Of a stretch of 64,000 bases of DNA, positions 758 to 50,019 are shown piece by piece. Position numbers and translations under genes: made by a program. The notes beneath the pieces were generated by a model. The model saw nothing but the letters and a program-made list of their open reading frames with translations. It was not told where the DNA came from and searched no databases. Source of the stretch: Alphaproteobacteria bacterium (GTDB lineage: Bacteria > Pseudomonadota > Alphaproteobacteria > CAAHEQ01 > UBA3637); NCBI GenBank assembly GCA_015062385.1, contig SUUT01000006.1:7587-71586 (forward strand), given 5' to 3'. Position 1 is the stretch's first letter, and each line of letters begins with the position of its first letter.

Positions 758-767
758 AGCGGATTTG

Positions 768-9127: not shown

Positions 9128-9129
9128 TA

Positions 9130-9147
9130 TAGTTTTACTATAAGTTC
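9130..9147 (+). promoter_or_regulatory. conserved phage intergenic motif, copy 5 of 6
   Basis: atatagttttactataagttc, tandem with copy 6, which lies 25 nt downstream. Confidence 0.5.
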
Positions 9148-9154
9148 AGATATA

Positions 9155-9172
9155 TAGTTTTACTATAAGTTT
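9155..9172 (+). promoter_or_regulatory. conserved phage intergenic motif, copy 6 of 6
   Basis: atatatagttttactataagttt. Confidence 0.5.
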
Positions 9173-9357
9173 TGCTTTTGTTCGTTGTCCGAGACTTGTT
9201 TTATCGTTTTTGGGGGCGTAAAAAGTATTTTAAAGTAATAAAAAAATGTCAAAACAGATACGAATAATGTATCTGAATGATTTGTTCAATCAATTTTTAT
9301 TCAAATTTCAAGTGTGTCAAAAATAAATTTAAATTTTTTAAAAAAGGAGAAAAAAAT

Positions 9358-10056
9358 ATGAGTAAAGCAATTGGTTCGGTCTTAGGTACAAATGTTAAAG
9401 TTGATACCTCTGCCGGAGAGAATTATTTATCTTATTTAAAGTCTTATGATACGTCAACAGCCGATAAAACAAACAACTTAATGGCTCAGGAAGCGTATCA
9501 GTTGGCTTCTGATTTATCTAATCAAGGGCTGGTTTCTGCCGTTTCGGCTTCTGATGAAGCCCGTCAGCGGATGGAAAATGCAACATATCAATCATATATG
9601 GATCGCTTAATCCCGCAACATCAACAACAAATGGCTGATTTGGAAACCCGTTTGGCTAATCAGGGATTGTCGGTTGGTTCACAGGCTTATCAAACAGCCG
9701 TTAATAATTTAATGCAAGAACAAAATGATTCCATTAATCAAGCGACTTACAAGAGCGTTATTGCAGGTCAGGATGCTTATACGCAATCCCTAAATGATGC
9801 CATTGCAGCCGGTAATTTTACAAATACGGCTTATCAAACGGCAATTAATCAGATGAATGCACTCTTGCAAAATAGCCCAACGGGGTATCAAAATCAAGCA
9901 AATATCTATGCTGTTCAACAGGGTGTTGCACAACAACAGGCATCGGCAAAACAGCAAAGCTTAAACAATATGTTTGGCGTGTTGGGTGGGGCTTTAAATG
10001 CAGCGACAACCGCTTATGGTTATTCTCAAATGGGTAAAACTGCTTCAAACGGTTAA
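9358..10056 (+). CDS. Q/A/N-rich helical virion protein (ejection/scaffold-like)
   Basis: The start is taken at ATG 9358, behind aaggagaaaaaaat. The 232-aa product is low-complexity and coiled-coil-like. The call is by position only. Confidence 0.4.
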   Translation: MSKAIGSVLGTNVKVDTSAGENYLSYLKSYDTSTADKTNNLMAQEAYQLASDLSNQGLVSAVSASDEARQRMENATYQSYMDRLIPQHQQQMADLETRLANQGLSVGSQAYQTAVNNLMQEQNDSINQATYKSVIAGQDAYTQSLNDAIAAGNFTNTAYQTAINQMNALLQNSPTGYQNQANIYAVQQGVAQQQASAKQQSLNNMFGVLGGALNAATTAYGYSQMGKTASNG

Positions 10057-10203
10057 TCGGTGTTAACCTCAAATAATGCAGTATATCAGAGTGTTTTTTT
10101 TCTGTAATTTAAGTGTATCTGCATTTGATATTATTTATTTTTAATCAATAAATTAAATAGAATTATTAATGCTTAACATTAATTTAAAAAAAGGAAGGTT
10201 AAA

Positions 10204-11454
10204 ATGACAAATTTTAATTATGTTAATGATATTTTAAACGTTAATCGTCATGCTCCGAAAGCATTGGATTTAACGGGGATTGCCTCATTGCCGAATGCGG
10301 CGATAAATGGTTTACGAAATGGTATGGAGTTGAAAAATACAGTTTTGAAACAGCAGTCAACAGCAGATAGTTTATCTCGTCAACAGGCAGAAAACGATGT
10401 TCGGCGACAATATTTGCAAAATCCGGCTGCAAATACCATTTATGAGCCGTATTTTAACATCCGTCCATCTGGTCTTTCTCAAATGAATGGATATACAGTT
10501 AACGGCACAACTCAATCAGGTACCGATCGTTCTCGGATGATGCCGTCTAATGGATCTTCAATCAATAGTCGGGTAAATACATCCCGTACGCAAATGAGTG
10601 CAAAAGATAAAGAGTGGAATCGATTGACTGAGGCTGGTTTCGCTCCGCAAGAAATTATGTCTGTCTTATATCCGAAAGGTGTTCAAAGTAATGCTGTACA
10701 GCAAGAAAATCAAAAATCTTCAACAATGTTTGATAGATATGATTATTTTAACAAAAACAATCAAATAAATGACATTTCTAATCCAGTGAATGAAGATAAT
10801 TTTTCATCTTCAAACTTGATGAATGTTGGTCAAAATGTTTTTGTTTCTCCTCAACGTACACCGGTGGATTTTTCGGCTGTTGGAACAGATATGACAGTTC
10901 CTTCCGGCATGAATTTTGATACATCGGATGTGGCTAATCCGACAGATTTGAATACGTCATATCGACAAAATGCGTTTTCTTTTCCGCAATCGGATATCGT
11001 AAATGAAAAAACAATACCTATGCAATCGTTTATGTCCACATCTGAAACGGGGCCGATGAGTATGGATACAGTAAGTGATACATTAAATGCTTCCAATCCG
11101 GTAAGTAGTGAAATAAATACCTCAACGATGAGTGGAACAGTTGATAATGCATTTGTGTCAACAGGAACATCATCTGCTCCTACGGTTGAAAATATGCTAT
11201 CGACTTCCCCTGTCGGTTTAGGTGGAATGCATACAACAAATAATTATTCCTCCGAAACACAAAAATCAAGCGGACAAACATCATCGGTTGAAACTCAAAG
11301 CATGCATATGATGCCGTTTAAAACACAAGATGAATTGTATGCTTTTCAAGAAGCTGCTTTGGGAGCTGATTCTTCTTTAACCCCTGATCAACGCAATGCG
11401 CGTATTTTACAGGGCGTGCCAGTGTCTGATACATTTTGGAACAGCTTTGTTTAA
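10204..11454 (+). CDS. S/T/N-rich low-complexity virion protein (ejection/internal protein candidate)
   Basis: The 416-aa ORF has an RBS (aaggaaggttaaaatg) and extended S/T/N/M-rich segments. No family was recognised. Confidence 0.4.
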   Translation: MTNFNYVNDILNVNRHAPKALDLTGIASLPNAAINGLRNGMELKNTVLKQQSTADSLSRQQAENDVRRQYLQNPAANTIYEPYFNIRPSGLSQMNGYTVNGTTQSGTDRSRMMPSNGSSINSRVNTSRTQMSAKDKEWNRLTEAGFAPQEIMSVLYPKGVQSNAVQQENQKSSTMFDRYDYFNKNNQINDISNPVNEDNFSSSNLMNVGQNVFVSPQRTPVDFSAVGTDMTVPSGMNFDTSDVANPTDLNTSYRQNAFSFPQSDIVNEKTIPMQSFMSTSETGPMSMDTVSDTLNASNPVSSEINTSTMSGTVDNAFVSTGTSSAPTVENMLSTSPVGLGGMHTTNNYSSETQKSSGQTSSVETQSMHMMPFKTQDELYAFQEAALGADSSLTPDQRNARILQGVPVSDTFWNSFV

Positions 11455-11473
11455 CCGAATAAAAACCGTTAAC

Positions 11474-11503
11474 TTCCCCCGAAAAGATGTTTTTTCGGGG
11501 GAA
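11474..11503 (+). terminator. strong intergenic hairpin (ttcccccgaaaa-gatgtt-ttttcgggggaa)
   Basis: A 12-bp stem is read directly from the sequence. There is no clear T-run, so it may be a processing or attenuation hairpin rather than a true terminator. Confidence 0.4.
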
Positions 11504-11522
11504 AACGTTTAGGGAGCGGAAA

Positions 11523-11813
11523 ATGGACAGGAGAAGAAAAATGCCAAAATCTATGGATAGATTTTATGAAGTTCTGCATAAAACGGTGACCGGTTTTTTA
11601 ATTCCGCTTGTTTTTTATTTGTTGGGTCAAATCAATGAAGTGAAAAAAGAGGTATCAATTTTTGAGTTGCGGGTTGCCAAAGATTCAGCACAGTATGCCC
11701 TGCGAGATGATATCGTGCGGGTAGAAACAAAAATTGATGAGTTAAAAACACTTATCATACAGGAGGTTAAACGAAATGAGCATTATTACACCGGCTTTAA
11801 AAAAGCGGATTAA
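11523..11813 (+). CDS. holin or i-spanin-like membrane protein
   Basis: The start is taken at ATG 11523, behind gggagcggaaa. It has one TM helix (VTGFLIPLVFYLLGQI) followed by a coiled coil. It lies immediately upstream of, and overlapping, the endolysin gene. Confidence 0.5.
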   Translation: MDRRRKMPKSMDRFYEVLHKTVTGFLIPLVFYLLGQINEVKKEVSIFELRVAKDSAQYALRDDIVRVETKIDELKTLIIQEVKRNEHYYTGFKKAD

Positions 11814-12201
11814 ACGACATGAAGGGATGCGTCTTAAACCGTATCATTGTCCGGCTGGACGACTGACAATTGGCATTGGGCGTAATTTAACTGATGTTGG
11901 TATAACAGAAACGGAAGCTGAGTATTTGTTGGAAAACGATTTGCAATCGGCCGAAAAAAATTGTTCGGATGCGTTTATTTGGTATGAAAAACTGGATAAT
12001 ATTCGAAAAGGCGTGATTGTGGAAATGGTTTTTAATTTAGGATTTGCGGGATTTTTGGGATTCCGCAAATTGATAAAAGCGTTAACGATAGGGGATTATC
12101 TGACCGCTTCGAAAGAAATGTTATCCAGTCGTTGGGCAGCACAGGTGGGGCATCGGGCAGAGGTATTATCGTTAATTATGAAAACAGGAAAGGAGTATTA
12201 A
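11776..12201 (+). CDS. T4-type (GH24) phage lysozyme/endolysin
   Basis: HEGMRLKPYHCPAGRLTIGIGRNL aligns with T4 lysozyme [24 protein letters not shown], including the catalytic Glu and Thr. EMVFNLGFAGFLGF...SRWAAQVGHRAEVL aligns with NMVFQMGETGVAGF...SRWYNQTPNRAKRV. Confidence 0.9.
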   Translation: MSIITPALKKRIKRHEGMRLKPYHCPAGRLTIGIGRNLTDVGITETEAEYLLENDLQSAEKNCSDAFIWYEKLDNIRKGVIVEMVFNLGFAGFLGFRKLIKALTIGDYLTASKEMLSSRWAAQVGHRAEVLSLIMKTGKEY

Positions 12202-12202
12202 C

Positions 12203-12343
12203 ATGAAAGACAGACTATTATTATTTTTAAAAACAAACAAAAAGAAAATGATAACATTTATCGTAACGGGTATTTTAGCGGCGTTAGGTGTAGTAGCCGA
12301 TACAACGGCGTTAACTGAGTTATTGTCCGTTATGATACCATAA
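12203..12343 (+). CDS. 46-aa single-TM protein (holin/antiholin/spanin-like), below the ORF-track cutoff
   Basis: The ATG lies 2 nt after the lysozyme stop, with aggag 8 nt upstream. The product is MKDRLLLFLKTNKKKMITFIVTGILAALGVVADTTALTELLSVMIP, with a basic N-terminus and one TM helix. Confidence 0.5.
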   Translation: MKDRLLLFLKTNKKKMITFIVTGILAALGVVADTTALTELLSVMIP

Positions 12344-12354
12344 AAGGAGTGAAA

Positions 12355-13011
12355 ATGATGATTGTACAGCAAACGAAACCGGCGTTTTATCCGATAACGA
12401 CGGAGGATGTGTCGGCAACGGATATGCCGGAATGTCATCAATTAAATAATCGGATACATTCAGTTGAAAATAAGCTCAAAAAGCAAAATCATTCATCTGA
12501 AATTGTTTCGTCTGTTCAGCGAAAGCCTCAAAAAACTTCCGTTGAACGAAATTTGCAATCAGTTCAGGAAAAAAAGGTTTCTGTTTTTTCCGAACAGGAT
12601 GTATTGCCATCTCAGCGGAAAGCAGAAATGCTTTCCGCTGAACAAATTCAGTGTACAAAGCAAAAACAAACAGATGTTTGTTCTGTCACACAGGATGAAC
12701 CGACCCTTTTTTCATATACGATTGCAGACAGTTTTTCAAAATTATGTGATATTCAGGAAACTGCTTTATCCATGGCACCCAAACCCGATTTTACGGCAGC
12801 GTTAAAGTCGGAGGAATTAAAAGGAAAACTGTTTGGATTATATACGGATAAAAAGGATAAAGAAAAAGGATTTGAAAATTTACCGCAGTTGTTGGTTGAA
12901 TTTATTGAGGTTGATAAAACGGAATATCGAACATCATTCGGCAATGCAACAGCAGATAATAATCATTCGACAGAGGAAAATAGTTTGCCATTTACGGTAG
13001 AATATGTTTAA
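12355..13011 (+). CDS. hypothetical phage protein upstream of the large terminase (small-terminase position)
   Basis: The ATG lies behind aaggag. The 218-aa product has no recognisable motifs. Only its position suggests a small-terminase (TerS) role. Confidence 0.3.
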   Translation: MMIVQQTKPAFYPITTEDVSATDMPECHQLNNRIHSVENKLKKQNHSSEIVSSVQRKPQKTSVERNLQSVQEKKVSVFSEQDVLPSQRKAEMLSAEQIQCTKQKQTDVCSVTQDEPTLFSYTIADSFSKLCDIQETALSMAPKPDFTAALKSEELKGKLFGLYTDKKDKEKGFENLPQLLVEFIEVDKTEYRTSFGNATADNNHSTEENSLPFTVEYV

Positions 13012-13022
13012 GGAGTTTTTTT

Positions 13023-14348
13023 ATGCCAAAAATCAAGGTGTGCATACCGGCGGTTTTTCGTCCGTTGTTAAGTCAGAAAAAACGCATTAAATTTTATTAC
13101 GGCGGACGGGCAGGGGGAAAATCTTATGCTTTTGCCGATAGTTTACTGATTTTAGGGCGGATGAAAAAATTATTTATTGTCTGTTTAAGGGAGATTCAGG
13201 GATCCATTCGGGATTCTGTTCATAAATTGTTATCTGATCGTATTTCGTATTATCAGTTAAGTGATTATAAAGTGACTGATACAAAAATTGAAAATAAAGT
13301 GACCGGAACAGTTTTTGTATTTAAAGGTTTGCGAGATCAGGATCCGCAAAAAATAAAATCATTGGAGGGAGCAGATATTGCTTGGATTGAAGAAGCACAA
13401 ACCATTACCAAAAAATCATGGGATATATTAGAACCGACCATTCGTAAGCCGAATTCCGAAATTTGGATATCCATGAATCGAGAACAGGAAAATGATCCTT
13501 TATGGGTAGCGGTGGCAGTACAACCGGATGAAAATACGCTGGTTCAAAAGGTTAATTATACAGATAACCCCTTTTGTCCGCAGGAAATGAAAGATTTAGC
13601 CGATAAGTGTCGAGAGAAAAATCCGACGGATTATGCACACATTTGGTTAGGTGAACCCATTTTAAACGGAAATAATAAGCTGATAGATTTGCAGTCCGTT
13701 AAAAAGGCTCAATCGGGTCATCTGATTGAAACATCCGGTTCGTTGATTATCGGATTGGACATTGCCCGTTTTGGGGATGATGAAACTGTTTTTTGTTTCA
13801 GGCGGGGGCGTATATGTGAACGGTTTGAAGCCTATCGGAAAAAAGATACGGTAGAAGTGGCAAATATTGTCACGCATTACATTCAGCAATATCAACCATA
13901 TCGCATTTTTTTGGATATTGGCGGACAGGGTGCCGGTGTGTATGATATTTTAACGGACAGAGGATTTCGGGAAGTTGTTCGGGGTATATCGTTTGGGGAA
14001 AAAGCCATTCAATCAGACAGATACGTGAATAAACGGGCAGAAATGTGGGACGGTATTCGTCAATGGTTGACGGGAACGAGTCCTGTTTATTTGCCGAATG
14101 ATACAGCTATTACGGATGATTTATGTGATGTGAATAAAAAATACGATCGGTTGGGACGATTACAGTTGGAAGAAAAAGAAAGTTTAAAACGCCGGTTAGG
14201 ACGTTCTCCGGATTGGGGAGATGCATTAGCGTTAACGTTTGCAGAGCCGATATTTGAACAAGATACGCCGAATTTATATACGAATGATACGGATAAAATC
14301 AGCATTGAAACCTTGTTTTGCGATAAAAGGGAAGGTGCTGGTTGGTAA
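13023..14348 (+). CDS. terL: phage terminase large subunit
   Basis: It has a Walker A-like YYGGRAGGKSYAFA and an ATPase-coupling LREIQGS / IAWIEEAQ (Walker B-like). The C-terminal nuclease-like half has GLDIARFGDDETVF and FLDIGGQGAGVYD. Confidence 0.8.
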   Translation: MPKIKVCIPAVFRPLLSQKKRIKFYYGGRAGGKSYAFADSLLILGRMKKLFIVCLREIQGSIRDSVHKLLSDRISYYQLSDYKVTDTKIENKVTGTVFVFKGLRDQDPQKIKSLEGADIAWIEEAQTITKKSWDILEPTIRKPNSEIWISMNREQENDPLWVAVAVQPDENTLVQKVNYTDNPFCPQEMKDLADKCREKNPTDYAHIWLGEPILNGNNKLIDLQSVKKAQSGHLIETSGSLIIGLDIARFGDDETVFCFRRGRICERFEAYRKKDTVEVANIVTHYIQQYQPYRIFLDIGGQGAGVYDILTDRGFREVVRGISFGEKAIQSDRYVNKRAEMWDGIRQWLTGTSPVYLPNDTAITDDLCDVNKKYDRLGRLQLEEKESLKRRLGRSPDWGDALALTFAEPIFEQDTPNLYTNDTDKISIETLFCDKREGAGW

Positions 14349-14463
14349 TGGGAAAAGTAGGCTGAAAAAGCAGATAAAAGGGATGTGTTTCAGCAATAAT
14401 AAGGGTAGAACGATTTTTTATTAATGAAACACATCTAAAAGGGCAGAAAAAAATCTGCCCTTT
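14316..14463 (+). repeat. 148-bp perfect direct repeat, left copy (terL 3' end plus terminator)
   Basis: Base-for-base identical by eye to 16028-16175. It contains an 11-bp inverted repeat (gatgtgtttca ... tgaaacacatc) and the gggcaga/tctgccc terminator. Confidence 0.9.
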
Positions 14464-14486: not shown

Positions 14487-14551
14487 TTACTGCACCAAAA
14501 TAGCTTGTGCGGTTGCAGATGATACAGTCGGTGTCGCATAAAAAATAAGGC
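14487..14551 (-). pseudogene. relic 3' end of a pilin-like Cys-rich paralog
   Basis: The reverse strand reads ...FYATPTVSSATAQAILVQ*, against ...FYASIDVFSSTAQAILIQ* at the end of 16212..18341. An in-frame stop lies just upstream, so only about 20 codons survive. Confidence 0.6.
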
Positions 14552-14692
14552 TATACATTTAATCGGGTTATTATTTGATGTTATCGAAAATGGTTTTAGG
14601 GACAAAAATGGATAGTTTAAGTTTAAAAATTGGGTAAAAGTTAAACTTAAATAGCATAATATTAAAATAAGTTTAATTGTTCAAACTTAAAT

Positions 14693-15817
14693 TTATAAAC
14701 CGGCTTCAATTATATCCATATACTTTTTGAATATGTATTTTTTATATCTTTTTGTTTGATTGGTTTGGACTAATAATCCTTTTTCCACAAATCCATTTAC
14801 TAATTTATTTGCGGTTGCTTTACTAACTTGTAATGATTTCTCAACTGCTGAAATCTCTAATGTTGGTTTGACGAATAAAAAGTCAAAAAGTTTATACTCA
14901 TTTTCTCCTTTTAAAGTATGGGATAGTTCATTTTTTAACGAATTAATTTGAGTAGTTGTTTGCATAATTTGTTTGCAAACTATTTCTATTCCTTTTAAAA
15001 AGAACAAAATCCAAGTCTCAAAATCATTATTTTCTCTTGTTTTTGTTAAGAGAGTATAGTATTCTTGTTTATGTTTTTTTAAGTATAAACTCAAATATAA
15101 TGTCGGTTGTTCCAAGATGTTTTTGCTTATTAAAAATAAACTGATTAATAAACGTCCAATTCTTCCGTTTCCATCTAAAAATGGATGAATGGTTTCAAAT
15201 TGATAGTGTATTAATGCTAATTTAATAACATCGGGAAGTGTTCCTTCATAGATATATTTTTCTAAATCACTCATTAAATTAATTACGGTATCTTCTTTGG
15301 GTGGAACATAAATTGCGGTAGAGGGATTATTTCCGCCAATGAAATTTTGACTTCTTCTGAATTCGCCGGGGGTTTTGTCGTTTTCTCCACCTCTCACATT
15401 ATTCATTAAAATATTGTGACATTCTCTTAATAGCCTTGATGATAAAGGTAATCCACCATTTTTGATTTGATTGGTGGCATAATTTAAAGCATGCAAGTAG
15501 TTTTTCACTTCTATAATATCTACTTTTATATCATCATTATTATTGTTTTCATTTTGTAAAATTTCCACCATGGTGGATTGTGTCCCTTCTATCTGTGATG
15601 ATAATAATGCTTCTTTTAATGCATATTTTTCAATTAAAAGTTCCGGATTAGGTAATAAAATATTTAATGCATTTAATTGTCCTAATGCCCAAGTTGCACT
15701 GGAGATTGCTTGATATAGATTTGACAAATCCAATTCTTTTTCTATTTGTTGTAATGCATTTGGTTGAAAAGTGTCATATCCTCTGCCAGAATTTACTTTA
15801 CTTCCGGAAATTGGCAT
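14693..15817 (-). CDS. Fic-family protein (class II, N-terminal inhibitory helix, C-terminal wHTH-like domain)
   Basis: It has the Fic motif HPFLDGNGRIGR and the inhibitory motif S-x-x-x-E-G in LLSSQIEGTQS upstream. The C-terminal ~70 aa are winged-helix-like. Confidence 0.9.
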   Translation of the reverse strand: MPISGSKVNSGRGYDTFQPNALQQIEKELDLSNLYQAISSATWALGQLNALNILLPNPELLIEKYALKEALLSSQIEGTQSTMVEILQNENNNNDDIKVDIIEVKNYLHALNYATNQIKNGGLPLSSRLLRECHNILMNNVRGGENDKTPGEFRRSQNFIGGNNPSTAIYVPPKEDTVINLMSDLEKYIYEGTLPDVIKLALIHYQFETIHPFLDGNGRIGRLLISLFLISKNILEQPTLYLSLYLKKHKQEYYTLLTKTRENNDFETWILFFLKGIEIVCKQIMQTTTQINSLKNELSHTLKGENEYKLFDFLFVKPTLEISAVEKSLQVSKATANKLVNGFVEKGLLVQTNQTKRYKKYIFKKYMDIIEAGL

Positions 15818-16027: not shown

Positions 16028-16175
16028 TTTTGCGATAAAAGGGAAGGTGCTGGTTGGTAATGGGAAAAGTAGGCTGAAAAAGCAGATAAAAGGGATGTGT
16101 TTCAGCAATAATAAGGGTAGAACGATTTTTTATTAATGAAACACATCTAAAAGGGCAGAAAAAAATCTGCCCTTT
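16028..16175 (+). repeat. 148-bp perfect direct repeat, right copy (detached terL 3' fragment plus terminator)
   Basis: Identical to 14316-14463. Here it is not attached to any terminase ORF. Confidence 0.9.
16153..16175. terminator. bidirectional terminator (copy), serves the gene ending at 16212
   Basis: The same gggcaga/tctgccc hairpin. On the minus strand it is followed by tttt. Confidence 0.7.
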
Positions 16176-16211: not shown

Positions 16212-18341
16212 CTATTGTATCAAAATCGCTTGTGCGGTTGATGAGAATACATCTATTGATGCATAAAACGTATTGGCAGGTGCTAGATCTTTATTGGTAT
16301 TTACCTGTGCCAATACAACAAGTTGATTACCTTTTGGTTTTTGTAATGCCATTAATAAATGTTGCCCATGATTATCATAGCATCCGGTATCTTGATCATA
16401 ATGAACCGGTACAAAATTTGAAATAGTTGTATTTGTTAAGATTATCTGATTGTTTGTTACAGTTAAACGACCGCTCCATCTTGGACAGCTTCCTAATTGA
16501 ACACTTGTAGAAATATCTGCTTTTTGATTTGTTCCGATTAATTGCCATACACCGGTTGTAATTGTTGTCGGAAAAGTAAATATTAACGAATTTCCTTTGG
16601 TTAATGAATATGTTCCAACATGATTAGCAATATCTTCATAATATCCGCCTGTTTCAATCGAAACGGTTACGGCACACGCTTTATGTTCATCATTCCAAGT
16701 TGCCCCCTCCGGACACGTAATACACGTTCTGCCATTATCATGTGAACCGGTCGGACAAGTACATCCTGTTTGTGTGGCATTTATGATATACGGTGCTGTA
16801 CACGTTGCACAGGTTGTCCCTGTATCATATGTTCCTGTCGGACAGACACATTTATCGCCTTCACGAGTATAGGGGGCAAAGCACATCGGGCCCCAATCCC
16901 GACATAATGCGTAGTGCGGTCCACCATGATAATCCGTAGAAGAGCTTTGATGTGTATTAACTTTGTTTTGAGATAACCAGAAACAGGCTCGTTGACAAGT
17001 CATATTGCCACTCTGACTCCAAGGATTATAGGTAATCCACGGACCACTTGAATATCCGGCATTTATTAAATTGGTTGTAATTATCTTATATACTGAACTA
17101 TCATATCCGCTACATGTTTGGGCCTGATTGTCAATTGCTAGATTGTTTGTACATCCTAAATCAGGAACGGATACCATTTGTTTCCCCAAAGCTGTACAGA
17201 AGTTAATGGCTGATTCCCAACCTTTATTGCCGTCTCCATAATCTTTTTTAGAGAAATAAAAGTTGACACCGTTAATTTTGAAAGTGATGAAATCCAATTT
17301 TTCACAACGAGCATTGCTAAATGTTCCCGTTTCACAAATATTATCCCCCCGTGTACAGAAATAATTTGTATCATTATTGTACAGTTTATGACAATCATCA
17401 TTCGATTCGCATTCATTCGGCGAACATTCTTTACCATTCCAATACGGCGCAGAACTTGGACAGGCAATACATTCGTTTGTATTAACGGCAAAAACCGGTG
17501 TTGCATCCGGACATTTTTCACATTTGTCTGGATTTGTACTGTTCACATTATAAAATGGGCGTTCATCCGGACACGATTTGCAGGTATTATTTGATGTATC
17601 ACAGACAAGGTTCGGAATTTGACACGTACTGTCATCGATGCATTCAACACATTCTTCATTATGCCATACAGGTGTCATATCCGGACAACGACACGTTGTT
17701 TCATCTTCAAACCATTCTTTGGGCGGATAACACCGTTCGCAATTATCTCCAAATTCATATTCGTGACGACAAACACAACCATATGTACCATCTTCTTTTT
17801 GTCGCCATACCATTTTATCGGGGCAGGATTGCGGTTCAATATTTGGATTATCCGTTTCTGTTTCAGTGGTTCCGCCGAAATGACTGTCTGAATTAACAAC
17901 CGGAATTGCATTAAAAGAAAACACCATATTTGTTTTGCTGTTTGGATTTCCGCACGTTCTTGTTAAAATTGAAATACCCATATCATTCAATATACCTTCC
18001 TTTTGAAGGAGTTTTTCACAAACCTTATAAACCACTTTAAATGTCGTTACCTGATAATTACTATTAACCAACTTGACCATGGACTTTTTGTCATCAGGGA
18101 CATATTCGGAAAGTGCTGATTTAATAAACCGATTGACTTCCAATGCATGAGAAGCCCGAGAATCTGTTTGTGCCAATGTTTTGGCTTTTCCGAGAACATC
18201 CTGCACTTTGCCGGCTTGATAAGCCGTTAACGCATATTGGTAAGTAGCAACACCGGCAACAGATAATACACCGATAATTGCCAATACCCCTAGCATTTCC
18301 ACCATACTTCGTCCGGTTTCATTCAGTTTGATTTTAAACAT
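16212..18341 (-). CDS. type IV pilin-like N-terminus fused to Cys-rich ectodomain with lectin-like insert
   Basis: MFKIKLNETG|RSMVEMLGVLAIIGVLSVAG has a Gly, Glu at +5 and a hydrophobic helix. The RBS is gggaggag. It has dense C-x-x-C / C-x-C repeats, a W-x-S-A-x-x-F-C-x-x-x-G module, and a Cys-poor beta-rich C-terminal ~140 aa. Confidence 0.8.
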   Translation of the reverse strand: MFKIKLNETGRSMVEMLGVLAIIGVLSVAGVATYQYALTAYQAGKVQDVLGKAKTLAQTDSRASHALEVNRFIKSALSEYVPDDKKSMVKLVNSNYQVTTFKVVYKVCEKLLQKEGILNDMGISILTRTCGNPNSKTNMVFSFNAIPVVNSDSHFGGTTETETDNPNIEPQSCPDKMVWRQKEDGTYGCVCRHEYEFGDNCERCYPPKEWFEDETTCRCPDMTPVWHNEECVECIDDSTCQIPNLVCDTSNNTCKSCPDERPFYNVNSTNPDKCEKCPDATPVFAVNTNECIACPSSAPYWNGKECSPNECESNDDCHKLYNNDTNYFCTRGDNICETGTFSNARCEKLDFITFKINGVNFYFSKKDYGDGNKGWESAINFCTALGKQMVSVPDLGCTNNLAIDNQAQTCSGYDSSVYKIITTNLINAGYSSGPWITYNPWSQSGNMTCQRACFWLSQNKVNTHQSSSTDYHGGPHYALCRDWGPMCFAPYTREGDKCVCPTGTYDTGTTCATCTAPYIINATQTGCTCPTGSHDNGRTCITCPEGATWNDEHKACAVTVSIETGGYYEDIANHVGTYSLTKGNSLIFTFPTTITTGVWQLIGTNQKADISTSVQLGSCPRWSGRLTVTNNQIILTNTTISNFVPVHYDQDTGCYDNHGQHLLMALQKPKGNQLVVLAQVNTNKDLAPANTFYASIDVFSSTAQAILIQ

Positions 18342-18380
18342 TTGGCTCCTCCCTACAAAAAAACTACTACTTTATATTAT

Positions 18381-18536
18381 AAAAAAAGGTACCTTTTTTT
18401 CCCGCTTCGAATCGAAAGAATCGGATTTTTAAGAAAATGAAAAATTATTGTTTTTATTGAATTGGTTAGTTAAAATCAAAAAAAATGTCAAAATGTGAAA
18501 AAAATTGTTGCATTTATACGTACCTTTTTGTACAGA
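18381..18536 (-). promoter_or_regulatory. conserved upstream element, copy A
   Basis: This is the reverse complement of 27526-27678. It ends in the perfect palindrome aaaaaaaggtaccttttttt (18381-18400). It also contains an A8/T8 tract and the tctgtacaaaaaggtacgta box. Confidence 0.75.
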
Positions 18537-18743
18537 CATATATTTTTTATTATGGCATTCTTTTGAACCTGCCGTCTGTCCTGTTGAACTTGTTTCAACA
18601 TTGCGGATAGAATTGGAATGGATATTTTTTTACCATTATCGTAATGAACCGCTGAAACAAATTCAAGGTTGTTGCTTAAAAGTGTGATAAATAAATGACG
18701 AAAAACTAAAAAGAGGGAAGAATCAGCACAAATAATATGCTAT
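18381..18743. repeat. left arm of a ~360-bp inverted repeat (upstream element plus REP units 18571-18743)
   Basis: The reverse complement aligns with 27322-27678 with only scattered mismatches and small indels, by eye. Confidence 0.85.
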
Positions 18744-21590: not shown

Positions 21591-21679
21591 AACGCCCCCA
21601 TTCTGATATTATAAATAATCTGTACATTATGAATGTCAATCCAACCAAAAGCATCATCAACAATCAAAAATTTTGTATT

Positions 21680-21843
21680 TCTGTAAAAAAAGGGACGTAT
21701 AATTGCAACACTTTTTTTCACTTTTTAGCATTTTTTTTGATTTTAACTAACTTATTAAACTAAAAGAATAATCTTTCATTTTTGCCGAAAGTTGATTTTC
21801 CCGATTCGAATAGGGAAAAAAAGGTCCCTTTTTGTATACACAA
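21680..21843 (+). promoter_or_regulatory. conserved upstream element, copy D (most diverged)
   Basis: tctgtaaaaaaagggacgtataattgcaacactttttttcac...T8...gattttaactaa...gattcgaatagggaaaaaaaggtcccttttt is collinear with copies A-C. The palindrome is degraded to ggtccc. Confidence 0.65.
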
Positions 21844-21873: not shown

Positions 21874-22242
21874 ATGAAAAAAATACTATTATTAGCAACT
21901 CTTTCTATCATCTTGCCAAGTATAGCATGGGGAGCCTGTGAAGGTGGAGAAGAATTTACCGGTAAAAATGGTCATGTATATTGTAAAAGCAATCAATATA
22001 TGAATTGGTGGAGTGCTTTTGCTTGGTGCAAAGCAAACGGTCGTCATTTAGTGACTTTGGATGAAGCATGCAATAATAATTCTTGGATAAACGGTTGTCC
22101 AAATATTTTTTTAGACGTAGATCGGTTTGGTTGGACTTCAATCGCATCAGGGGATCAACACGCCTATCGTGTTCATTTTAAATATGCCACTGTTAGCACA
22201 GCAGGGAGAGCTGGCGAGTACTGTACTGCTCTTTGCTATTAA
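21874..22242 (+). CDS. small secreted Cys-rich lectin-like protein
   Basis: The start is taken at ATG 21874, behind ggagga. It has a Sec signal (MKKILLLATLSIILPSIAWG|A). NWWSAFAWCKANGRHLVTLDEAC ... EYCTALC parallels GWESAINFCTALGKQMVSVPDLGC ... HYALC in 16212..18341. Confidence 0.6.
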   Translation: MKKILLLATLSIILPSIAWGACEGGEEFTGKNGHVYCKSNQYMNWWSAFAWCKANGRHLVTLDEACNNNSWINGCPNIFLDVDRFGWTSIASGDQHAYRVHFKYATVSTAGRAGEYCTALCY

Positions 22243-27726: not shown

Positions 27727-30700
27727 ATGCGAATCAAACTGAATGAACATGGACGAAGTATGGTAGAAATTCTTGGTGTGTTGGTTGTTATTGGCATATT
27801 GTCTATTGGGGGTATGGTTGGATATGAATATGCCTATTCGGCATATCAAGTACATAAAATTCAGGATGTTTTGCTAAAAGCAAAAGCACAGACAGACACC
27901 AAACGTCGAAATTCCCGAGTGACAAGCATTAATCGTTTTGTTAAAAGTACATTAAGCGAATATGCTCCGGATGATAATACACCAATGGTTTCTTTTGAAG
28001 AAAATGTTCATTATGTCGATTTATACAAAGTATCGGATGTTATATGTAAAATGTTGTTTGAGCGACAAGAGTCATTGAGCCGAGTCGATATTTATCTAAT
28101 AAAACCTAACAGTATCGAAAATTGTACCAATCAAGAAAATCGTTTAGTGTATTCATTTGACAAAGTTGTTGATACAGATGACACGTCAACCTCCGATTGG
28201 ACTGATGAACCACTGAATTCTGATATTCCCGACTGTGAATATCCCCGTCAGATAATAGATGGGATTTGTACTTGTGCCTCTCCGACAATATGGAGTGATG
28301 TATATAACGATTGTATTTGTGATGAAGAAAATTATGCTGATATGTGTGCTGCTTGTCCGTTGCCTCGTAAATGGGTTTCCGGAGAATGTGTTTGTGCCGA
28401 TTCGGATAAGGTTTGGGATGAAGAAAATAACGCTTGTGTTTGTAAAGATGAAAATGCAGAAGAAGATGCATCCGGTAAGTGTATTCTTTGTGAATCTCCG
28501 AATACATACGACCCAATTGAAGATAAATGTGTTTGTATAGAACCGGAATGTGTATGCGAAACACCTCGTCAGATTATAGATAACGAATGTAAATGTTCAG
28601 ATAATCAAAAATATTTAGAAAGTGAAAATATTTGTGTTGAATGTCGTCACAATAATGATTGTATGGATGAGTACTATTGTGATGAAAATCATACCTGTCA
28701 ATTGTTGAATTGTGATGAAATGGGTTTTCCGATACGGTCCTTTTATTGCAGTTATGTGGATTTTGACAGTAATGCCGGTTATACCCCGTGGATGTATGTA
28801 AATAAGTATTATCAAACGGGGAGGGGAAATTGGACACTTGTATCTGGTTGCCAAAATTCTGTTTTGATTGTTCCAAAAGATTTTAAAGGTAATGTTTCTT
28901 TGGGTTCTTGTCGAGTTGGATGGGTTATTATTGACGGACAAAAATATTCATTAAATTCAAGCAAAACAACAGAGATTGATATTAAAAAAGGGAAATATTC
29001 CATTACATTCGGAACATCTCGTAATAAAGGTCGGGAAGGATGTAATATTAATTTCCATAGAAAACTCGGATGGGATATCTGTATGGCAAAGCAAAATAAT
29101 TGTCCTGCCGGATTTTATTGCCAACCTGACAGTCATAAAACAACTATTTGTCCAGTGGGGCATTATTGTCCCCAAAATTCATTTTTAGGGCCTACGCAAT
29201 GTCCGGTCGGAACATATAATCCTGAGGAAGGAAAATCGGCAAAAAGCGATTGTATGACGTGTTCATTAGGTAATTATTGTGCCAAAGGTTCTATTAATCA
29301 AACTCCTTGTCCGGCAGGATATTATTGTACATCAGCTTCTAAACAGACAGCATGTCCGAAAGGAACGTACAATCCGGATACGGGTAAAACGGCAAAATCT
29401 GATTGTATTGTCTGCTCGGAAACATCTTATTGTCCGGCGGGATCTGTACAGGAAATTACGTGTCCCGCAGGATATTATTGTACAGAAACAGCTCAAACAG
29501 CTTGTCCTGCAGGAACGTATAATCCGAATGAGGGCGCAACCGATAAGAGTGCCTGCTTAAAATGCGAATCCGGTCATTATTGCCCGAAAGCTTCCGTTAC
29601 CCAAACAATCTGCCCAAAAGGTCATTATTGTTCTTTGACAACAGCAACGGCTTGTGGGGCAGGTAAATATAACAATTTAGAAGGACAAACAAGTAGTAAG
29701 GCTTGTTTAGCTTGTCCGGCAGGTTCCTATTGTCCAAAAGCATCGGCTGAACCGATAATTTGTCCGAAAGGATATTATTGTTTGGCAAGTAAAGGGGCAG
29801 CAACTGTTTGTCCGAGCGGAACTTATACTGTTGGCGAAGGGGCAACGGCAAAAACAGATTGTATTGCTTGTACAACTGGTATGTATTGTGCAACGGGTGA
29901 AAGCGGAGATTGTCCGGCAGGATATTATTGTCCGACCCCCAAGACAAAAACAGCATGTCCGGTTGGTACTTACAACCCAACACCCGGAGCAACAAGCAAA
30001 GATGCTTGTATTGCATGTGATGACGGTATGTATTGTGCCAAAGGTTCTACCGAACAAACGCCTTGTCCGGCGGGGTATTATTGTACATCTCCTTCAACAA
30101 AAACGGCATGTCCGGCCGGAAAATACAATCCGAATGAACAGGCAACCAGTAAAACAGATTGTATTGCTTGTACAAGCGGATATTATTGTTTAAAAGGGGC
30201 TATTGAACAAACACTGTGTTCTATAGGGTGTTATTGTTCATTAACAAAAGAAACTATATGTTCTGCCGGAACTTACAACTTAAAAACGGGACAAAGCAGT
30301 TCTTCTGCTTGTTTGGCTTGTCCGGTCGGAATGTATTGTCCAACAACAACCAAAGAACCGATTACTTGTCCGGAAGGGTATTATTGTCCGGCAAAATCAG
30401 CGACGGCAAAAGCATGTGCAAGTGGTTATTTTAGTGATGTTGGTGCAAAAGTCTGTACAAAATGTTTAGCGGGGTCTTATTGTCCTGATGGTAAGAACTC
30501 AACAATAAAAACGTGTCCAATCGGGCATTATTGTGCTGCCGGATGTACTTCTCCGGTAAAGTGTGCAGAGGGGTATTATAACGGACAAACAGGACAATCG
30601 GCTTGTACAAAGTGTCCGGCCGGTTCATACTGCTCGGGAACGGGAAATACGCAAACAACGGTTTGTCCGGCGGGGGCATATTGTCCGGCAGGAGCAACTG

Positions 30701-31344
30701 CACCGACATTGTGTGCCGCCGGAAAATACAATCCGAATACAGGCGGAACGGCAAGCACGGCTTGTAAAACATGTCCGGCCGGTTCCTATTGTCCGACAGC
30801 GGGAACAGTGACTCCTATAACTTGTAAAGCCGGAACTTATTGTGTTGCCGGAGCAACGGCAGAAAAAGTATGTGCTGCCGGATATTACAATGGGCAAACA
30901 GGACAATCGGTTTGTACAAAGTGTCCGGCTGGTTCATACTGCTCGGGAACAGGCAATACACAAATGACTGTTTGTCCGGCGGGGGCATATTGTCCGGCAG
31001 GAGCAACTGCACCGACATTGTGTGCCGCCGGAAAATACAATTCGAATACAGGCGGAACGGCAAGCACGGCTTGTTTAAAGTGTCCTGCTGGTTCATACTG
31101 CTCGGGAACGGGAAATACGCAAACAACGGTTTGTCCGGCGGGGGCATATTGTCCGGCAGGAGCAACTGCACCGACATTGTGTGCCGCCGGAAAATACAAT
31201 CCGAATACAGGCGGAACGGCAAGCACAGCTTGTTTAAAGTGTCCTGCTGGGTCTTATTGTGGGAAAGGAACTATAACGCCGATTGCTTGTCCGGATGGAA
31301 AAACATCAGTTGCCGGTTCGGATGCTTTAAGCGATTGTAAATAA
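27727..31344 (+). CDS. type IV pilin-like N-terminus fused to giant ephrin-receptor-like/GCC2_GCC3-like Cys-repeat protein (1205 aa)
   Basis: The start is taken at ATG 27727 (RBS gagggtaagatt). The N-terminus is MRIKLNEHG|RSMVEILGVLVVIGILSIGG. About 14 units of ~50 aa follow, with CPxGxYC ... CPxGTYNPxxGxxxxxxCxxCxxGxYC. Confidence 0.85.
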   Translation: MRIKLNEHGRSMVEILGVLVVIGILSIGGMVGYEYAYSAYQVHKIQDVLLKAKAQTDTKRRNSRVTSINRFVKSTLSEYAPDDNTPMVSFEENVHYVDLYKVSDVICKMLFERQESLSRVDIYLIKPNSIENCTNQENRLVYSFDKVVDTDDTSTSDWTDEPLNSDIPDCEYPRQIIDGICTCASPTIWSDVYNDCICDEENYADMCAACPLPRKWVSGECVCADSDKVWDEENNACVCKDENAEEDASGKCILCESPNTYDPIEDKCVCIEPECVCETPRQIIDNECKCSDNQKYLESENICVECRHNNDCMDEYYCDENHTCQLLNCDEMGFPIRSFYCSYVDFDSNAGYTPWMYVNKYYQTGRGNWTLVSGCQNSVLIVPKDFKGNVSLGSCRVGWVIIDGQKYSLNSSKTTEIDIKKGKYSITFGTSRNKGREGCNINFHRKLGWDICMAKQNNCPAGFYCQPDSHKTTICPVGHYCPQNSFLGPTQCPVGTYNPEEGKSAKSDCMTCSLGNYCAKGSINQTPCPAGYYCTSASKQTACPKGTYNPDTGKTAKSDCIVCSETSYCPAGSVQEITCPAGYYCTETAQTACPAGTYNPNEGATDKSACLKCESGHYCPKASVTQTICPKGHYCSLTTATACGAGKYNNLEGQTSSKACLACPAGSYCPKASAEPIICPKGYYCLASKGAATVCPSGTYTVGEGATAKTDCIACTTGMYCATGESGDCPAGYYCPTPKTKTACPVGTYNPTPGATSKDACIACDDGMYCAKGSTEQTPCPAGYYCTSPSTKTACPAGKYNPNEQATSKTDCIACTSGYYCLKGAIEQTLCSIGCYCSLTKETICSAGTYNLKTGQSSSSACLACPVGMYCPTTTKEPITCPEGYYCPAKSATAKACASGYFSDVGAKVCTKCLAGSYCPDGKNSTIKTCPIGHYCAAGCTSPVKCAEGYYNGQTGQSACTKCPAGSYCSGTGNTQTTVCPAGAYCPAGATAPTLCAAGKYNPNTGGTASTACKTCPAGSYCPTAGTVTPITCKAGTYCVAGATAEKVCAAGYYNGQTGQSVCTKCPAGSYCSGTGNTQMTVCPAGAYCPAGATAPTLCAAGKYNSNTGGTASTACLKCPAGSYCSGTGNTQTTVCPAGAYCPAGATAPTLCAAGKYNPNTGGTASTACLKCPAGSYCGKGTITPIACPDGKTSVAGSDALSDCK
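30571..31233 (+). repeat. near-identical in-frame intragenic repeats
   Basis: 156-bp units at 30610-30765, 30919-31074 and 31078-31233 encode KCPAGSYCSGTGNTQ(T/M)TVCPAGAYCPAGATAPTLCAAGKYN(P/S)NTGGTASTAC and differ at only a few bases. 30571-30765 is repeated at 30880-31074. Confidence 0.9.
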
Positions 31345-48798: not shown

Positions 48799-50019
48799 AT
48801 GAAAATTAAAATTAATGAATTCGGTCGTAGCATGGTGGAAATGCTAGGTGTACTTGCCGTTATCGGGGTATTAAGTGTTGCCGGTATTATGGGATATAAG
48901 TATGGTATGATGAAATATCGGGTCAATGAAACTGTGAATGAACTCAACATTATGGCAAACACATATGGTGTTCAAATGCAACAGATGACAGAAGAACAGA
49001 CAATGCCGACAAACGGAGAATTACTGAGTGAAGAAGGGGCAACGACTCGTATGGGCTATGGATATGAAGTGCTGGGTTTTGATAATCATTTTGAAATAGC
49101 CTTATTGAATATCCCGACAGAAGAATGTGAACAACTCCAAAAAACAGGGTGGGCTATGCCGTATGATATACAAGTTGCAGAAGTGACAGCAGAAAACTGT
49201 GGCGAAATTGTATATTATATCAACAATGATTTAAGCGGATTTGCTCCGGAAACAGATAGTTCAGATGAAGATGATACAGATGAGGAAGAATCTCCGCTTG
49301 ATTGTGGTTTATATGGAACATTGATTGATAATACTTGTCAATGCGATGATGGATATACGGGAAATACATGTAATCGATGTGATACATCAAAAGGGTATAA
49401 GAAACAAGATTCTAATGGTAAATGTTATCAGGATTGTCAAATAACAAACAGTTGTACAAATGAAAATTATTGCAATGGAAATGCATTTCATACGGTAATT
49501 GGAGGCGATGGTCTTTTTTATTGTAAGCATTGCAAAGATGGGTATTGGGGAACACATTGTGAAAATTATGATCCTTCAGGCGATGCTTGTAATGGTCAAA
49601 GTAAAAGTTATGGTTGGATGAATTCTAATGTTGTAAATGGATGTGCTTGTGATAATAATCATTGGGGAGATCATTGTGAATATTTAAAATCAGAAAAGCC
49701 TGAATGTCATGGTCACGGAACAGTATATGGTTATGGACATTGTACTTGTGATGAAGGTTATTCCGGAGAATATTGTGAAAAGGAAGAACCAGCTGTTGAA
49801 TGTGGTATTACACTGGATTCTTATGGTTCTAAAAGTGGGTATATGATATATGAAAATGGTACAGCCTATTGTCAATGTGTCAATGGTTATACCGGTTCAG
49901 ATTGTAAAACTCCGCCAACCCAAGAATGCAAAAATGGTTATTGGGCTTATTATGAGGAAAATCCGACATGCGTTTGTTATAGTGGATGGTCCGGACCTGA
50001 TTGTAATACTCGGAATTAA
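48799..50019 (+). CDS. type IV pilin-like N-terminus fused to EGF-like repeat protein (406 aa)
   Basis: The N-terminus is MKIKINEFG|RSMVEMLGVLAVIGVLSVAG. Repeats CQCDDGYTGNTC, CTCDEGYSGEYC, CQCVNGYTGSDC and CVCYSGWSGPDC fit the EGF-like C-x-C-x2-G-[FYW]-x4-C pattern. Confidence 0.85.
   Translation: MKIKINEFGRSMVEMLGVLAVIGVLSVAGIMGYKYGMMKYRVNETVNELNIMANTYGVQMQQMTEEQTMPTNGELLSEEGATTRMGYGYEVLGFDNHFEIALLNIPTEECEQLQKTGWAMPYDIQVAEVTAENCGEIVYYINNDLSGFAPETDSSDEDDTDEEESPLDCGLYGTLIDNTCQCDDGYTGNTCNRCDTSKGYKKQDSNGKCYQDCQITNSCTNENYCNGNAFHTVIGGDGLFYCKHCKDGYWGTHCENYDPSGDACNGQSKSYGWMNSNVVNGCACDNNHWGDHCEYLKSEKPECHGHGTVYGYGHCTCDEGYSGEYCEKEEPAVECGITLDSYGSKSGYMIYENGTAYCQCVNGYTGSDCKTPPTQECKNGYWAYYEENPTCVCYSGWSGPDCNTRN

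Follow-up and report, generated by a model that had tools for sequence, protein, structure and literature searches.

A modular type IVb pilin-like gene with a C-type-lectin-like insert and segments of different ancestry in gut Alphaproteobacteria

Introduction

What does a gut bacterium do with a protein that opens like a pilin, continues in cysteine-rich repeats and carries a domain best known from animal cell surfaces? The question is raised by a gene at positions 16212..18341 (minus strand) of a 64,000-nucleotide (nt) stretch of contig SUUT01000006.1, assembly GCA_015062385.1, from Alphaproteobacteria bacterium; this whole stretch is called the window below. An initial annotation, made from the letters alone, had described the product as a pilin-leader protein with stalk-like repeats, a C-type-lectin-like insert and a Cys-free beta-sandwich at its C-terminus. 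How uncultured gut commensals choose their attachment targets is largely unknown. We propose, as a fairly probable reading, that this 709-amino-acid (aa) protein is a modular type IVb pilin acting as an interchangeable adhesin displayed on pili. Its N-terminal module is homologous to type IVb pilins, its insert is related to C-type-lectin-like domains (CTLDs), it belongs to a large family with a common upstream element, and the gene itself is a mosaic.

Results

Layout of the gene and its product

The list of open reading frames (ORFs) of the window holds an intact 709-aa frame on the minus strand at the positions initially given, 16212..18341. Its parts are as follows.

16212..18341, minus strand: whole gene, modular type IVb pilin-like, 709 aa; stop codon at 16212-16214
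18312..18341, minus strand: class III (prepilin) leader, aa 1-10, MFKIKLNETG, with the invariant Gly(-1) at its end (from the alignment)
17877..18311, minus strand: mature type IVb pilin module, aa 11-155, made up of alpha1 (hydrophobic, Glu+5) and a globular part that carries the conserved Cys108 and Cys130
17832..17876, minus strand: linker, aa 156-170, acidic, Thr/Asn-rich and without Cys (from its composition)
17427..17831, minus strand: Cys-rich stalk 1, aa 171-305, seven C-x(1,2)-C-P... units (from unit dissection)
17304..17426, minus strand: six-Cys "knot", aa 306-346, conserved Cys columns C7, C13, C25, C32 and C42
16884..17303, minus strand: non-canonical C-type-lectin-like domain, aa 347-486 (from profile, AlphaFold2 (AF2) and Foldseek)
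16674..16883, minus strand: Cys-rich stalk 2, aa 487-556, four units (from unit dissection)
16215..16673, minus strand: C-terminal head of unassigned fold, predicted all-beta, aa 557-709; holds Cys619 and Cys654 and closes with the conserved ...TAQAIL[IV][QE]
16149..16175, between the convergent terminase and pilin genes: palindromic GC-stem hairpin GGGCAGA...TCTGCCC (an inverted repeat)

Full-length homologs of the protein share 71%, 66% and 37% identity with it; genomes with the closest relatives found include GCA_017481685.1 and MAG RGIG7750. All database names of its relatives read "hypothetical protein", scans of the 709 aa with Pfam and NCBIfam returned no model reaching its cut-off, and the leader motif of the family had no occurrence in indexed papers. 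The linker is 60% identical to those of the relatives P0002 and P0003. The Cys-rich repeats pointed out in the initial annotation are indeed present as C-x(1,2)-C units, seven in aa 189-306 and four in aa 498-556, which are often followed by P-x3-P-x-aromatic. Pfam gives no match to stalk 1 and a weak TNFR-like match to stalk 2, a search of the stalks for tandem repeats at the DNA level found none, and stalk 2 of P0003 and P0121 shows a clean two-unit (29-aa) deletion. The six-Cys knot always lies N-terminal to the lectin-like domain and has a high predicted local distance difference test score (pLDDT) in the model. Beyond the stop codon, the hairpin region is also kept downstream of P0002 and is likely, judging by its sequence, a bidirectional terminator.

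A type IVb pilin module at the N-terminus

We built a profile of the N-terminal domain from 34 diverse family members. Leader and start of alpha1 read MFKIKLNETG followed by RSMVEMLGVLAIIGVLSVAG. The motif G-R-S-M-V-E (G10 R11 S12 M13 V14 E15) is invariant in all 34 domains, Cys108 and Cys130 are kept in at least 90% of them, and the domain, about 155 aa long, is common to all 120 listed relatives. Against the PDB, the profile matched type IV pilins only, and weakly, with V14-E15 aligned on I4-E5 of solved pilins; we therefore predict cleavage after Gly10 and a Glu at position +5.

The link to solved pilins is indirect but strong, and it runs through short relatives. At three loci in other genomes (L050, L065 and L083), a family member of about 190 aa is the last gene of a type IVb operon, which also encodes a TcpQ-like protein (E = 4e-16), a Secretin, PilO (PF06864, PAP_PilO), a T2SSE ATPase (1e-64), T2SSF and a Bundlin/PilS-like pilin. 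From 16 short (~190-aa) family members in operon contexts we built a second profile, which hhalign aligned with the N-terminal domain at 99.9% (E = 2.9e-34) over 123 columns, extending beyond alpha1 as far as the strand with the conserved Cys. In the PDB, the short-pilin profile matched bundlin (1zwt, 5e-12), PilS (1q5f, 7.5e-7), TcpA (8uhf, 1.7e-6) and CofA (9iuf, 1e-3). One short operon member scores above the Pfam PilS cut-off, and one of the 34 N-terminal domains matches that model at 3e-4. The pilin leader noticed in the initial annotation is thus upheld and sharpened to type IVb: by these profile comparisons, the N-terminus is a type IVb pilin module.

The Bundlin/PilS-like protein of the operon, about 200 aa long, lies just before the GRSMVEML pilin (L050 9263-9859, L065 9234-9857, L083 3032-3658). 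Its N-terminus is without the family leader, and it may be a second pilin or an accessory protein. The T2SSE ATPase of the operon is 82-95% identical across many metagenome-assembled genomes (MAGs) of the lineage, and the locus-tag prefixes of its homologs name sister MAGs only (E7004, E7010 and E7019).

A distant relative of C-type-lectin-like domains

The module spanning aa 305-486 recurs in 56 of the 120 listed relatives, sometimes twice per protein, so that the motif singled out in the initial annotation (W-x-S-A-x-x-F-C...G-x-x-M-V-S...Y-A-L-C) does mark a recurrent domain. The lectin-like module mostly forms the C-terminal end of relatives of 400-480 aa. Its alignment begins with the six-Cys knot and continues with W-x-S-A-x-x-F-C-x-A-L-G-K-x-x-V-x-x-S-D-L-x-C, an invariant Trp and a terminal Y-A-L-C. 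When a profile of the module was compared with the PDB, 50 of the 51 matches were CTLDs, the best being PLA2R (6.3e-5), CLEC4F (1.2e-4) and CLEC2D (1e-3), with langerin also among them; snaclecs aligned over about 90 columns. The AF2 model of the lectin-like domain (pLDDT 84.7, predicted template modeling score (pTM) 0.85) is confident and has the order beta-beta-alpha-alpha-beta4 that a CTLD should show. A Foldseek search with this model returned CTLDs of Ly49 natural killer (NK) cell receptors as its top five matches (best E 6.5e-3, probability 0.69-0.97, template modeling (TM) scores 0.35-0.50), and every other match was noise. Cys382, in alpha1, falls on the CTLD cysteine C1 and Cys480, in Y-A-L-C, takes the C4 position; the C2-like Cys449 is conserved, with no conserved C3 partner in the module alignment.

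Profile and model together support the insert as a distant, non-canonical domain of the CTLD superfamily. The initial annotation's assignment therefore stands at the superfamily level, in the PDB matches as in the Ly49 fold, but the Lectin_C model and the calcium- and sugar-site motifs of canonical members were missed.

An orphan all-beta head at the C-terminus

The C-terminal domain had been called Cys-free, which does not hold: its 153 aa contain Cys619 and Cys654, and only the last 55 aa are without Cys. Of the predicted beta-sandwich, the all-beta character was recovered in an AF2 model of aa 557-709 with 11 strands (pLDDT 71, pTM 0.67), but the sandwich itself was not, as no credible fold match was found. 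Foldseek searches returned noise, with a best probability of 0.25 against the PDB and of at most 0.85 (best TM 0.41) against the BFVD viral models.

An exhaustive hidden Markov model (HMM) search of 1.84 billion representatives located the domain in 11 clusters, none with a credible Pfam domain, and a word-indexed search added three more proteins, all truncated; the domain is thus very rare. Among its distant carriers, P0126 and P0130 combine a pilin leader, a stalk and the C-terminal domain without a CTLD, and P0127 and P0128 join it to an ordinary Sec signal peptide. In all four of these it ends the protein and follows immediately on a Cys-rich repeat, a placement which indicates that the domain is a distal head on a stalk.

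The gene is a mosaic

As mosaic reference we used P0002 (718 aa), the closest full-length relative at 71% overall identity. Segment by segment, identity to it is as follows.

pilin module: 86% aa, 87% nt
stalk 1: 100% aa, 97% nt
knot: 70% aa, 78% nt
CTLD: 54% aa, 63.5% nt
stalk 2: 97% aa, 98.6% nt
C-terminal domain: 45% aa, 59% nt

Along the gene, nucleotide identity to P0002 switches to and fro between 97-100% and 57-63%, and codons 1-60 are 100% identical in sliding windows of 30 codons. Synonymous differences, counted among codons for the same amino acid, amount to 8% and 1.5% in the stalks and to 36% and 30% in the heads. Since synonymous divergence alternates in the same way as overall identity, the segments are of different ancestry, brought together by recombination in which leader and stalks served as homology arms; a pattern of this kind would not arise from selection acting on the heads alone.

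The gene lacks the marks of a shufflon of the PilV type. Its 3' part is not bordered by significant inverted repeats, no sfx-like repeats lie around it, and the ORF list shows no adjacent gene for an Rci-type recombinase.

A large family and its members in the window

We scanned species-representative genomes with the N-terminal profile and obtained at least 583 pattern matches, from which at least 557 family loci were confirmed. Almost all matches lie in uncultured gut or rumen Alphaproteobacteria MAGs, from buffalo, goat, sheep, deer, rabbit and human. Among the best 80 of these 557 or more loci, a single MAG holds up to eight, and the 80 comprise 82 leader-bearing ORFs of 101-994 aa.

A six-frame scan of the window with the N-terminal HMM found exactly three ORFs, the query (E = 1e-65) and two others (6e-43 and 1e-36), in agreement with the initial remark that other ORFs of the window share the leader. 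In addition, a six-frame scan with the module HMM picked out a small secreted protein.

27727..31344, plus strand: paralog of 1,205 aa, pilin module and stalk, then ephrin-receptor-like Cys repeats (from BLASTP and Pfam)
48799..50019, plus strand: paralog of 406 aa, pilin module, then EGF-like repeats (from HMM and Pfam)
21874..22242, plus strand: small secreted protein, a compact lectin-like domain (module HMM, E = 2.3e-6)

The first 330 aa of the 1,205-aa paralog parallel the query in pilin module and stalk (BLASTP, 34% identity over aa 2-329, E = 4e-40). Most of the rest consists of about 30 "CP-x-G-x-Y-C" units with sub-threshold Ephrin_rec_like/GCC2_GCC3 matches, and its gene carries near-identical internal repeats in its last ~500 nt. 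In the 406-aa paralog, likeness to the query is confined to the first 58 aa by BLASTP, and EGF_Teneurin matches at 38.5 bits, above its cut-off. The small protein at 21874..22242 gives only a 30-aa match to the query by BLASTP alone. With the module profile it aligns over its whole mature length, keeping W-W-S-A-x-x-W-C, the Trp and A-L-C. The similarity beyond cysteines suspected in the initial annotation is therefore real, resting on this full-length alignment and on an upstream element common to both genes.

Large ankyrin-repeat proteins adjoin family members elsewhere (locus L001, 1-743 and 12246-13949; Pfam Ank matches in L001 and L002), and an ORF family found in seven loci (for example L082, 5010-6287) looks ankyrin-like from sequence. 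Together with the EGF, CTLD and ephrin-like modules, the ankyrin repeats hint at a lifestyle tied to eukaryotic cells.

A shared upstream element

Upstream of the gene lies an element that recurs before the other family genes of the window.

18342..18538, minus strand: family upstream element, a conserved block of ~165 nt plus a variable leader and ribosome-binding site (RBS), defined by alignments; its landmarks are a 5' motif at 18519-18538 and the 16-nt palindrome AAAAAGGTACCTTTTT at 18383-18398
21662-21838, plus strand: copy before the small CTLD gene, 80% identical to that of the query
27524-27682, plus strand: copy before the 1,205-aa paralog, 99% identical over 181 nt
48599-48763, plus strand: copy before the 406-aa paralog, 84% identical

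The 1,205-aa paralog thus has an upstream region 99% identical to that of the query though the proteins are 34% identical. Over the four genes the element keeps 80-99% identity, much more than their coding sequences do. The element starts at its 5' end with AAAAAAAGG[GT]ACGTATAA and ends at its 3' end with GGGAAAAAAAGGT[AC]CCTTTT; next comes TATAAT or TATACT, some 35-45 nt ahead of the RBS. The palindrome AAAAAGGTACCTTTTT occurs four times in the window, against zero copies expected by chance, and 15 further copies of the element stand before family members in other genomes. We consider it probably a family-specific regulon promoter with operator-like sites, on the strength of its conservation and position; such a common promoter/operator element implies that its genes are co-regulated.

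An invertible promoter, suggested by the inverted pair AAAAAGGTAC and GTACCTTTTT, found no support and is unlikely: each of the 19 copies runs in the direction of its gene, without a single inversion. A search for a structured RNA or riboswitch in the element, with Rfam at gathering thresholds, gave 0 matches in the window.

The phage junction downstream of the gene

The initial annotation had reported a relic of a paralog's 3' end at 14487-14551 and had taken it as a sign that the family turns over at this locus. The relic is real, but it is not isolated, since it abuts a perfect direct repeat.

14487..14558, minus strand: relic of a P0002-type allele, covering its final ~21 codons and the stop (from the C-terminal-domain HMM)
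14316..14463, no strand assigned: 148-nt direct repeat, copy 1 (repeat search, 100% identity)
16028..16175, no strand assigned: 148-nt direct repeat, copy 2, directly downstream of the pilin gene (repeat search)

The HMM match covers 14490-14558 (E = 3.7e-6), and the DNA is 73% identical to the gene over 56 nt. The relic peptide, ...YATPTVSSATAQAILVQ before its stop, is the C-terminus of the homolog P0002 and not of the resident gene; relic and adjacent terminator together match the P0002 locus at 78% over 142 nt. Within the 148-nt repeat lie the final 33 nt of the phage terminase gene (13023..14348), a piece of intergenic DNA and the hairpin downstream of the pilin gene. A Fic gene lies between the copies at 14693-15817 (phrog_5978, E = 8e-90).

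Contigs from other genomes vary at this point. L003 and L004, which are otherwise collinear with the window, have an ortholog at ~150 nt from this terminase, a single repeat copy and no Fic gene, the phage in L004 being 99% identical to that of the window; L006 has the Fic arrangement of the window. Many metagenome contigs of 1.5-1.8 kb hold nothing but the Fic unit, which is what assembly breaks at the repeat would produce. This suggests that the Fic unit is a polymorphic insertion or deletion through the 148-nt repeat. The P0002 and P0003 loci are non-phage, and their homology to the window ends at 16129 and at about 18536-18539. From these comparisons, the relic is best described as part of a polymorphic, phage-associated 1.7-kb duplication at the junction of phage and gene. 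A plausible but unproven origin is the serial integration or recombination of related phages carrying the 3' end of the gene. A search for a free phage with relic and Fic gene by way of its terminase found no close phage in INPHARED, and the relatives in IMG/VR are only 59% identical, with the terminase leading directly to the portal gene and neither relic nor Fic between them. Turnover at the locus was thus right in spirit, but the stronger evidence for it is the mosaic of the gene, since the relic belongs to the phage-associated duplication.

A diversity-generating retroelement (DGR) acting on a variable protein with a C-type-lectin fold was considered as a further candidate, since the CTLD-like fold and the 3' repeat hinted at a template/variable repeat pair, and rejected. 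Mismatches between relic and gene are of all types and not adenine-specific, the 3' repeat falls on the C-terminal beta domain and not on the CTLD, and no ORF resembling a reverse transcriptase is apparent in the ORF list of the window, as judged by eye and not by HMM.

A second junction may be present in P0122, a 165-aa protein on a 734-nt ENA contig. It is a chimera ending in frame in the last 83 aa of the C-terminal domain; its N-terminal half looks by eye like an HK97-gp10-type phage protein (...GTKDIPARPFMR...). We read it, from its sequence, as another candidate junction between phage DNA and the 3' part of this gene.

Other features of the window

The first 14,348 positions (1-14348, plus strand) hold a prophage or its remnant, with an SU10-type adaptor at 3914-4639 and a lysozyme at 11776-12201. 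Its last gene, beside the pilin gene, is the large terminase at 13023-14348; since the portal gene comes right after the terminase in related IMG/VR phages, the prophage in the window ends where one would not usually expect it. The window showed no integrase gene. Three tandem paralogs in the phage region (1811-2275, 2262-2726 and 2713-3177, plus strand) overlap by 14 nt and encode 154 aa each, with a signal peptide and conserved Cys. At 7439-8173 (plus strand) a 244-aa multi-pass membrane protein has a Cys-rich C-terminal tail (...CLDFGYCQSGLVIKYCDNDCSD...) and no PHROG match.

Farther along, a 190-aa protein at 60796-61368 (minus strand) has a dense Cys/His array in its C-terminal half (CHCSDK...CHCSSDCTCGNNCHCHDGHRCSDNCTCEND...CCCCKCH) and is possibly metal-binding. 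The ORF at 53019-53885 (minus strand) looks by eye like a GcrA-type cell-cycle regulator, and mreBCD, a PBP2 gene and rodA lie within 31544-37035. These genes and a GC content of ~36% point to an alphaproteobacterium of low GC content, which the MAG names of all homologs bear out.

Discussion

We propose the following mechanism for the 709-aa protein. Prepilin peptidase would cut after Gly10. The protein would then be fitted into a type IVb pilus through alpha1, with its Glu+5, and through the small and putatively disulfide-bonded head of the pilin module (aa 11-155). This pilus would be built by the TcpQ/secretin/PilO/ATPase/platform machine, with a short ~190-aa family member as its major subunit. 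The tip is the most likely position because the C-terminal part is bulky. From there a display arm would extend as a rigid disulfide-rich stalk, the CTLD-like domain, the second stalk and the distal all-beta head, and ligands would be bound by its two globular domains, held away from the filament. Since the CTLD is without calcium and sugar motifs, glycans and proteins or other non-canonical ligands are equally likely. The gene is one of many versions per genome, interchangeable in our reading, that have a common promoter/operator element, leader and stalks and differing heads, the heads being swapped by homologous recombination through the conserved segments.

Several observations count against this proposal. 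The query scores 13.5 bits with N_methyl (PF07963), where the cut-off is 21.2, and the 23 of 34 family members that match this model do so below threshold only. Its +1 residue is Arg, which is unusual; this position is variable in type IVb pilins. The 64-kb window contains no pilus machinery gene and no prepilin peptidase gene, the operons of L050, L065 and L083 have no prepilin peptidase gene within 10 kb, and the link between the machinery and the modular members runs across genomes of the lineage. A disulfide-rich subunit of 709 aa, and all the more one of 1,205 aa as in the paralog, may not be able to pass a secretin. As to the insert, Pfam Lectin_C (PF00059) gave no match at E <= 1 to the query or to 34 module sequences, the conserved C2-C3 disulfide is absent from the module alignment, and the CTLD support is modest (best E 6e-5, TM 0.35-0.50).

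In an alternative that we judge unlikely, the pilin leader serves only export and membrane anchoring. Once cleaved, the protein would be kept by alpha1 either in the inner membrane or in a short pseudopilus like that of type II secretion, and the Cys-rich arm would be periplasmic or on the surface without a long pilus. The modular genes are scattered in unrelated contexts with no machinery beside them, the subunits reach the very large size of 1,205 aa, and P0127 and P0128 carry the same head domain behind Sec signal peptides, so that the heads need no pilus. Yet the pilin module is kept well beyond the leader, over 123 columns, and the same module is a short pilin within a type IVb operon. 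Rigid stalks with distal heads fit display, and known modular and minor pilins are filament-borne (PMC8179133, PMC6048534). Quite unlikely, in our view, is that the insert is a true calcium-dependent C-type lectin and the protein a glycan-specific adhesin for mucin or host glycans. The organism dwells in the gut, the nearest relatives of the insert in sequence and fold are animal CTLDs, and lectin modules are common on pilins (PMC8179133). EPN and QPD, however, occur nowhere in the 709-aa protein and its single WND (aa 549) falls in stalk 2, the long-loop region is not conserved across the family, the best-matching fold belongs to Ly49 receptors, which bind proteins, and the lectin domain of CofB binds a peptide, not a sugar (PMC6048534). 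Because Lectin_C, the C2-C3 disulfide and the EPN/WND motifs were all missed, we take the domain to be a "lectin" by fold, with no sugar binding implied.

The phage beside the gene raises another possibility, namely that the gene is phage cargo (lysogenic conversion) or otherwise tied to the adjacent prophage, for example as the phage's own version of an adhesin or as an integration site at the 3' end. In four independent contigs (the window, L003, L004 and L006) the 3' end of the gene lies ~150 nt from the same phage's terminase, the duplicated unit of terminase end, terminator and gene 3' end comes with a phage-type Fic gene (phrog_5978, E = 8e-90), and P0122 joins a phage-like protein to the last 83 aa of the domain. 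But the four contigs may represent a single lysogenic lineage, given the 99% identity of the L004 phage, and related IMG/VR phages have no such gene beside their terminase. P0002 and P0003 stand in non-phage contexts, where homology covers only the gene with its own promoter and terminator; the 709-aa protein has no PHROG match, and its upstream element is common to chromosomal paralogs 10-30 kb away. We regard this explanation as very unlikely and retain a pilus-displayed modular adhesin as the preferred reading of the gene.

On a wider scale, and only tentatively, uncultured gut and rumen Alphaproteobacteria may combine one conserved type IVb machine with a library, possibly of dozens per genome, of interchangeable eukaryote-like tip heads (C-type-lectin-like, EGF-like and ephrin-receptor/TNFR-like domains and the orphan beta domain), reshuffled by recombination and coordinated in expression through the ~165-nt element. 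Expression would perhaps be mutually exclusive, and the element would perhaps also drive free secreted CTLD proteins. If true, this would amount to a programmable adhesin-display or antigenic-variation system for pili. Through this family, a lineage that is abundant but unstudied would have a pilus whose exchangeable heads are made of domains familiar chiefly from animal cell-surface proteins. Since the modular genes fall below the N_methyl signature and the Pfam and NCBIfam cut-offs, hundreds of them are currently labelled "hypothetical". The analysis also provides handles for future work: a defined pilin module, two heads that can be expressed separately, a palindromic operator-like site and a mosaic that can be tracked by long-read metagenomes.

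The modular or minor type IV pilin adhesin is a known kind of protein. What appears new here is the architecture, in which a type IVb carrier bears a CTLD-like domain and an orphan beta head on disulfide stalks; the size of the family, its confinement to gut Alphaproteobacteria that are uncultured, its cassette mosaic and the common upstream element likewise appear undescribed. The logic of the proposed library is analogous to that of Neisseria pilE/pilS or Giardia variant-specific surface proteins (VSPs), differently built. With the CTLD superfamily the insert shares the core beta1-alpha1 motif W-x-x-A-x-x-x-C...G-x-x-L-[AV]-S, an invariant Trp at the WIGL position and the terminal ...A-L-C. 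In contrast to that superfamily, the domain of the pilin family has extra conserved Cys residues and a preceding six-Cys knot, and lacks both the conserved C2-C3 and the EPN/QPD/WND calcium-sugar site.

Modular type IV pilins were described by Raynaud et al. (2021) as an N-terminal pilin carrier joined to modules that are not pilus-specific and are predicted to be tip-exposed and adhesive, as in Streptococcus sanguinis PilB with its vWA module and PilC with its ConA-like lectin module (PMC8179133). The present protein likewise fuses a pilin carrier to functional modules, but its carrier is type IVb and its host a diderm alphaproteobacterium; as this carrier falls below the N_methyl/IPR012902 signature, the family would have been missed in catalogues of modular pilins. 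Further differences are the multi-module arms of CTLD-like domain, Cys-rich stalks and unassigned beta domain, the large families per genome, the cassette mosaicism and the common upstream element. CofB, a type IVb minor pilin with beta-rich domains and a lectin-fold end at the tip, starts assembly and mediates attachment (PMC6048534). Like CofB, TcpB and LngB, the 709-aa protein follows a type IVb pilin domain with beta-rich domains that include a lectin fold. Unlike CofB and TcpB, whose lectin fold is H-type, it has a C-type-like one, Cys-rich stalks in place of the beta-repeat domain, and genes that lie outside the pilus operon in many copies; the module, N-terminal and short-pilin profiles gave no match to CofB or TcpB, sequence similarity stops at the pilin module, and the likeness that is left is one of function. 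The PilV adhesin of R64/IncI thin pili (type IVb) is a minor pilin with a constant N-terminus, and its binding specificity depends on which of several C-terminal ends it bears (PMC9045228). Both systems use one type of machinery, with PilO, a PilS-like pilin, a secretin and an ATPase, but R64 is plasmid-borne and varies one gene through a site-specific invertase, whereas the system described here is chromosomal and lineage-wide and varies through complete paralogous genes and their mosaics.

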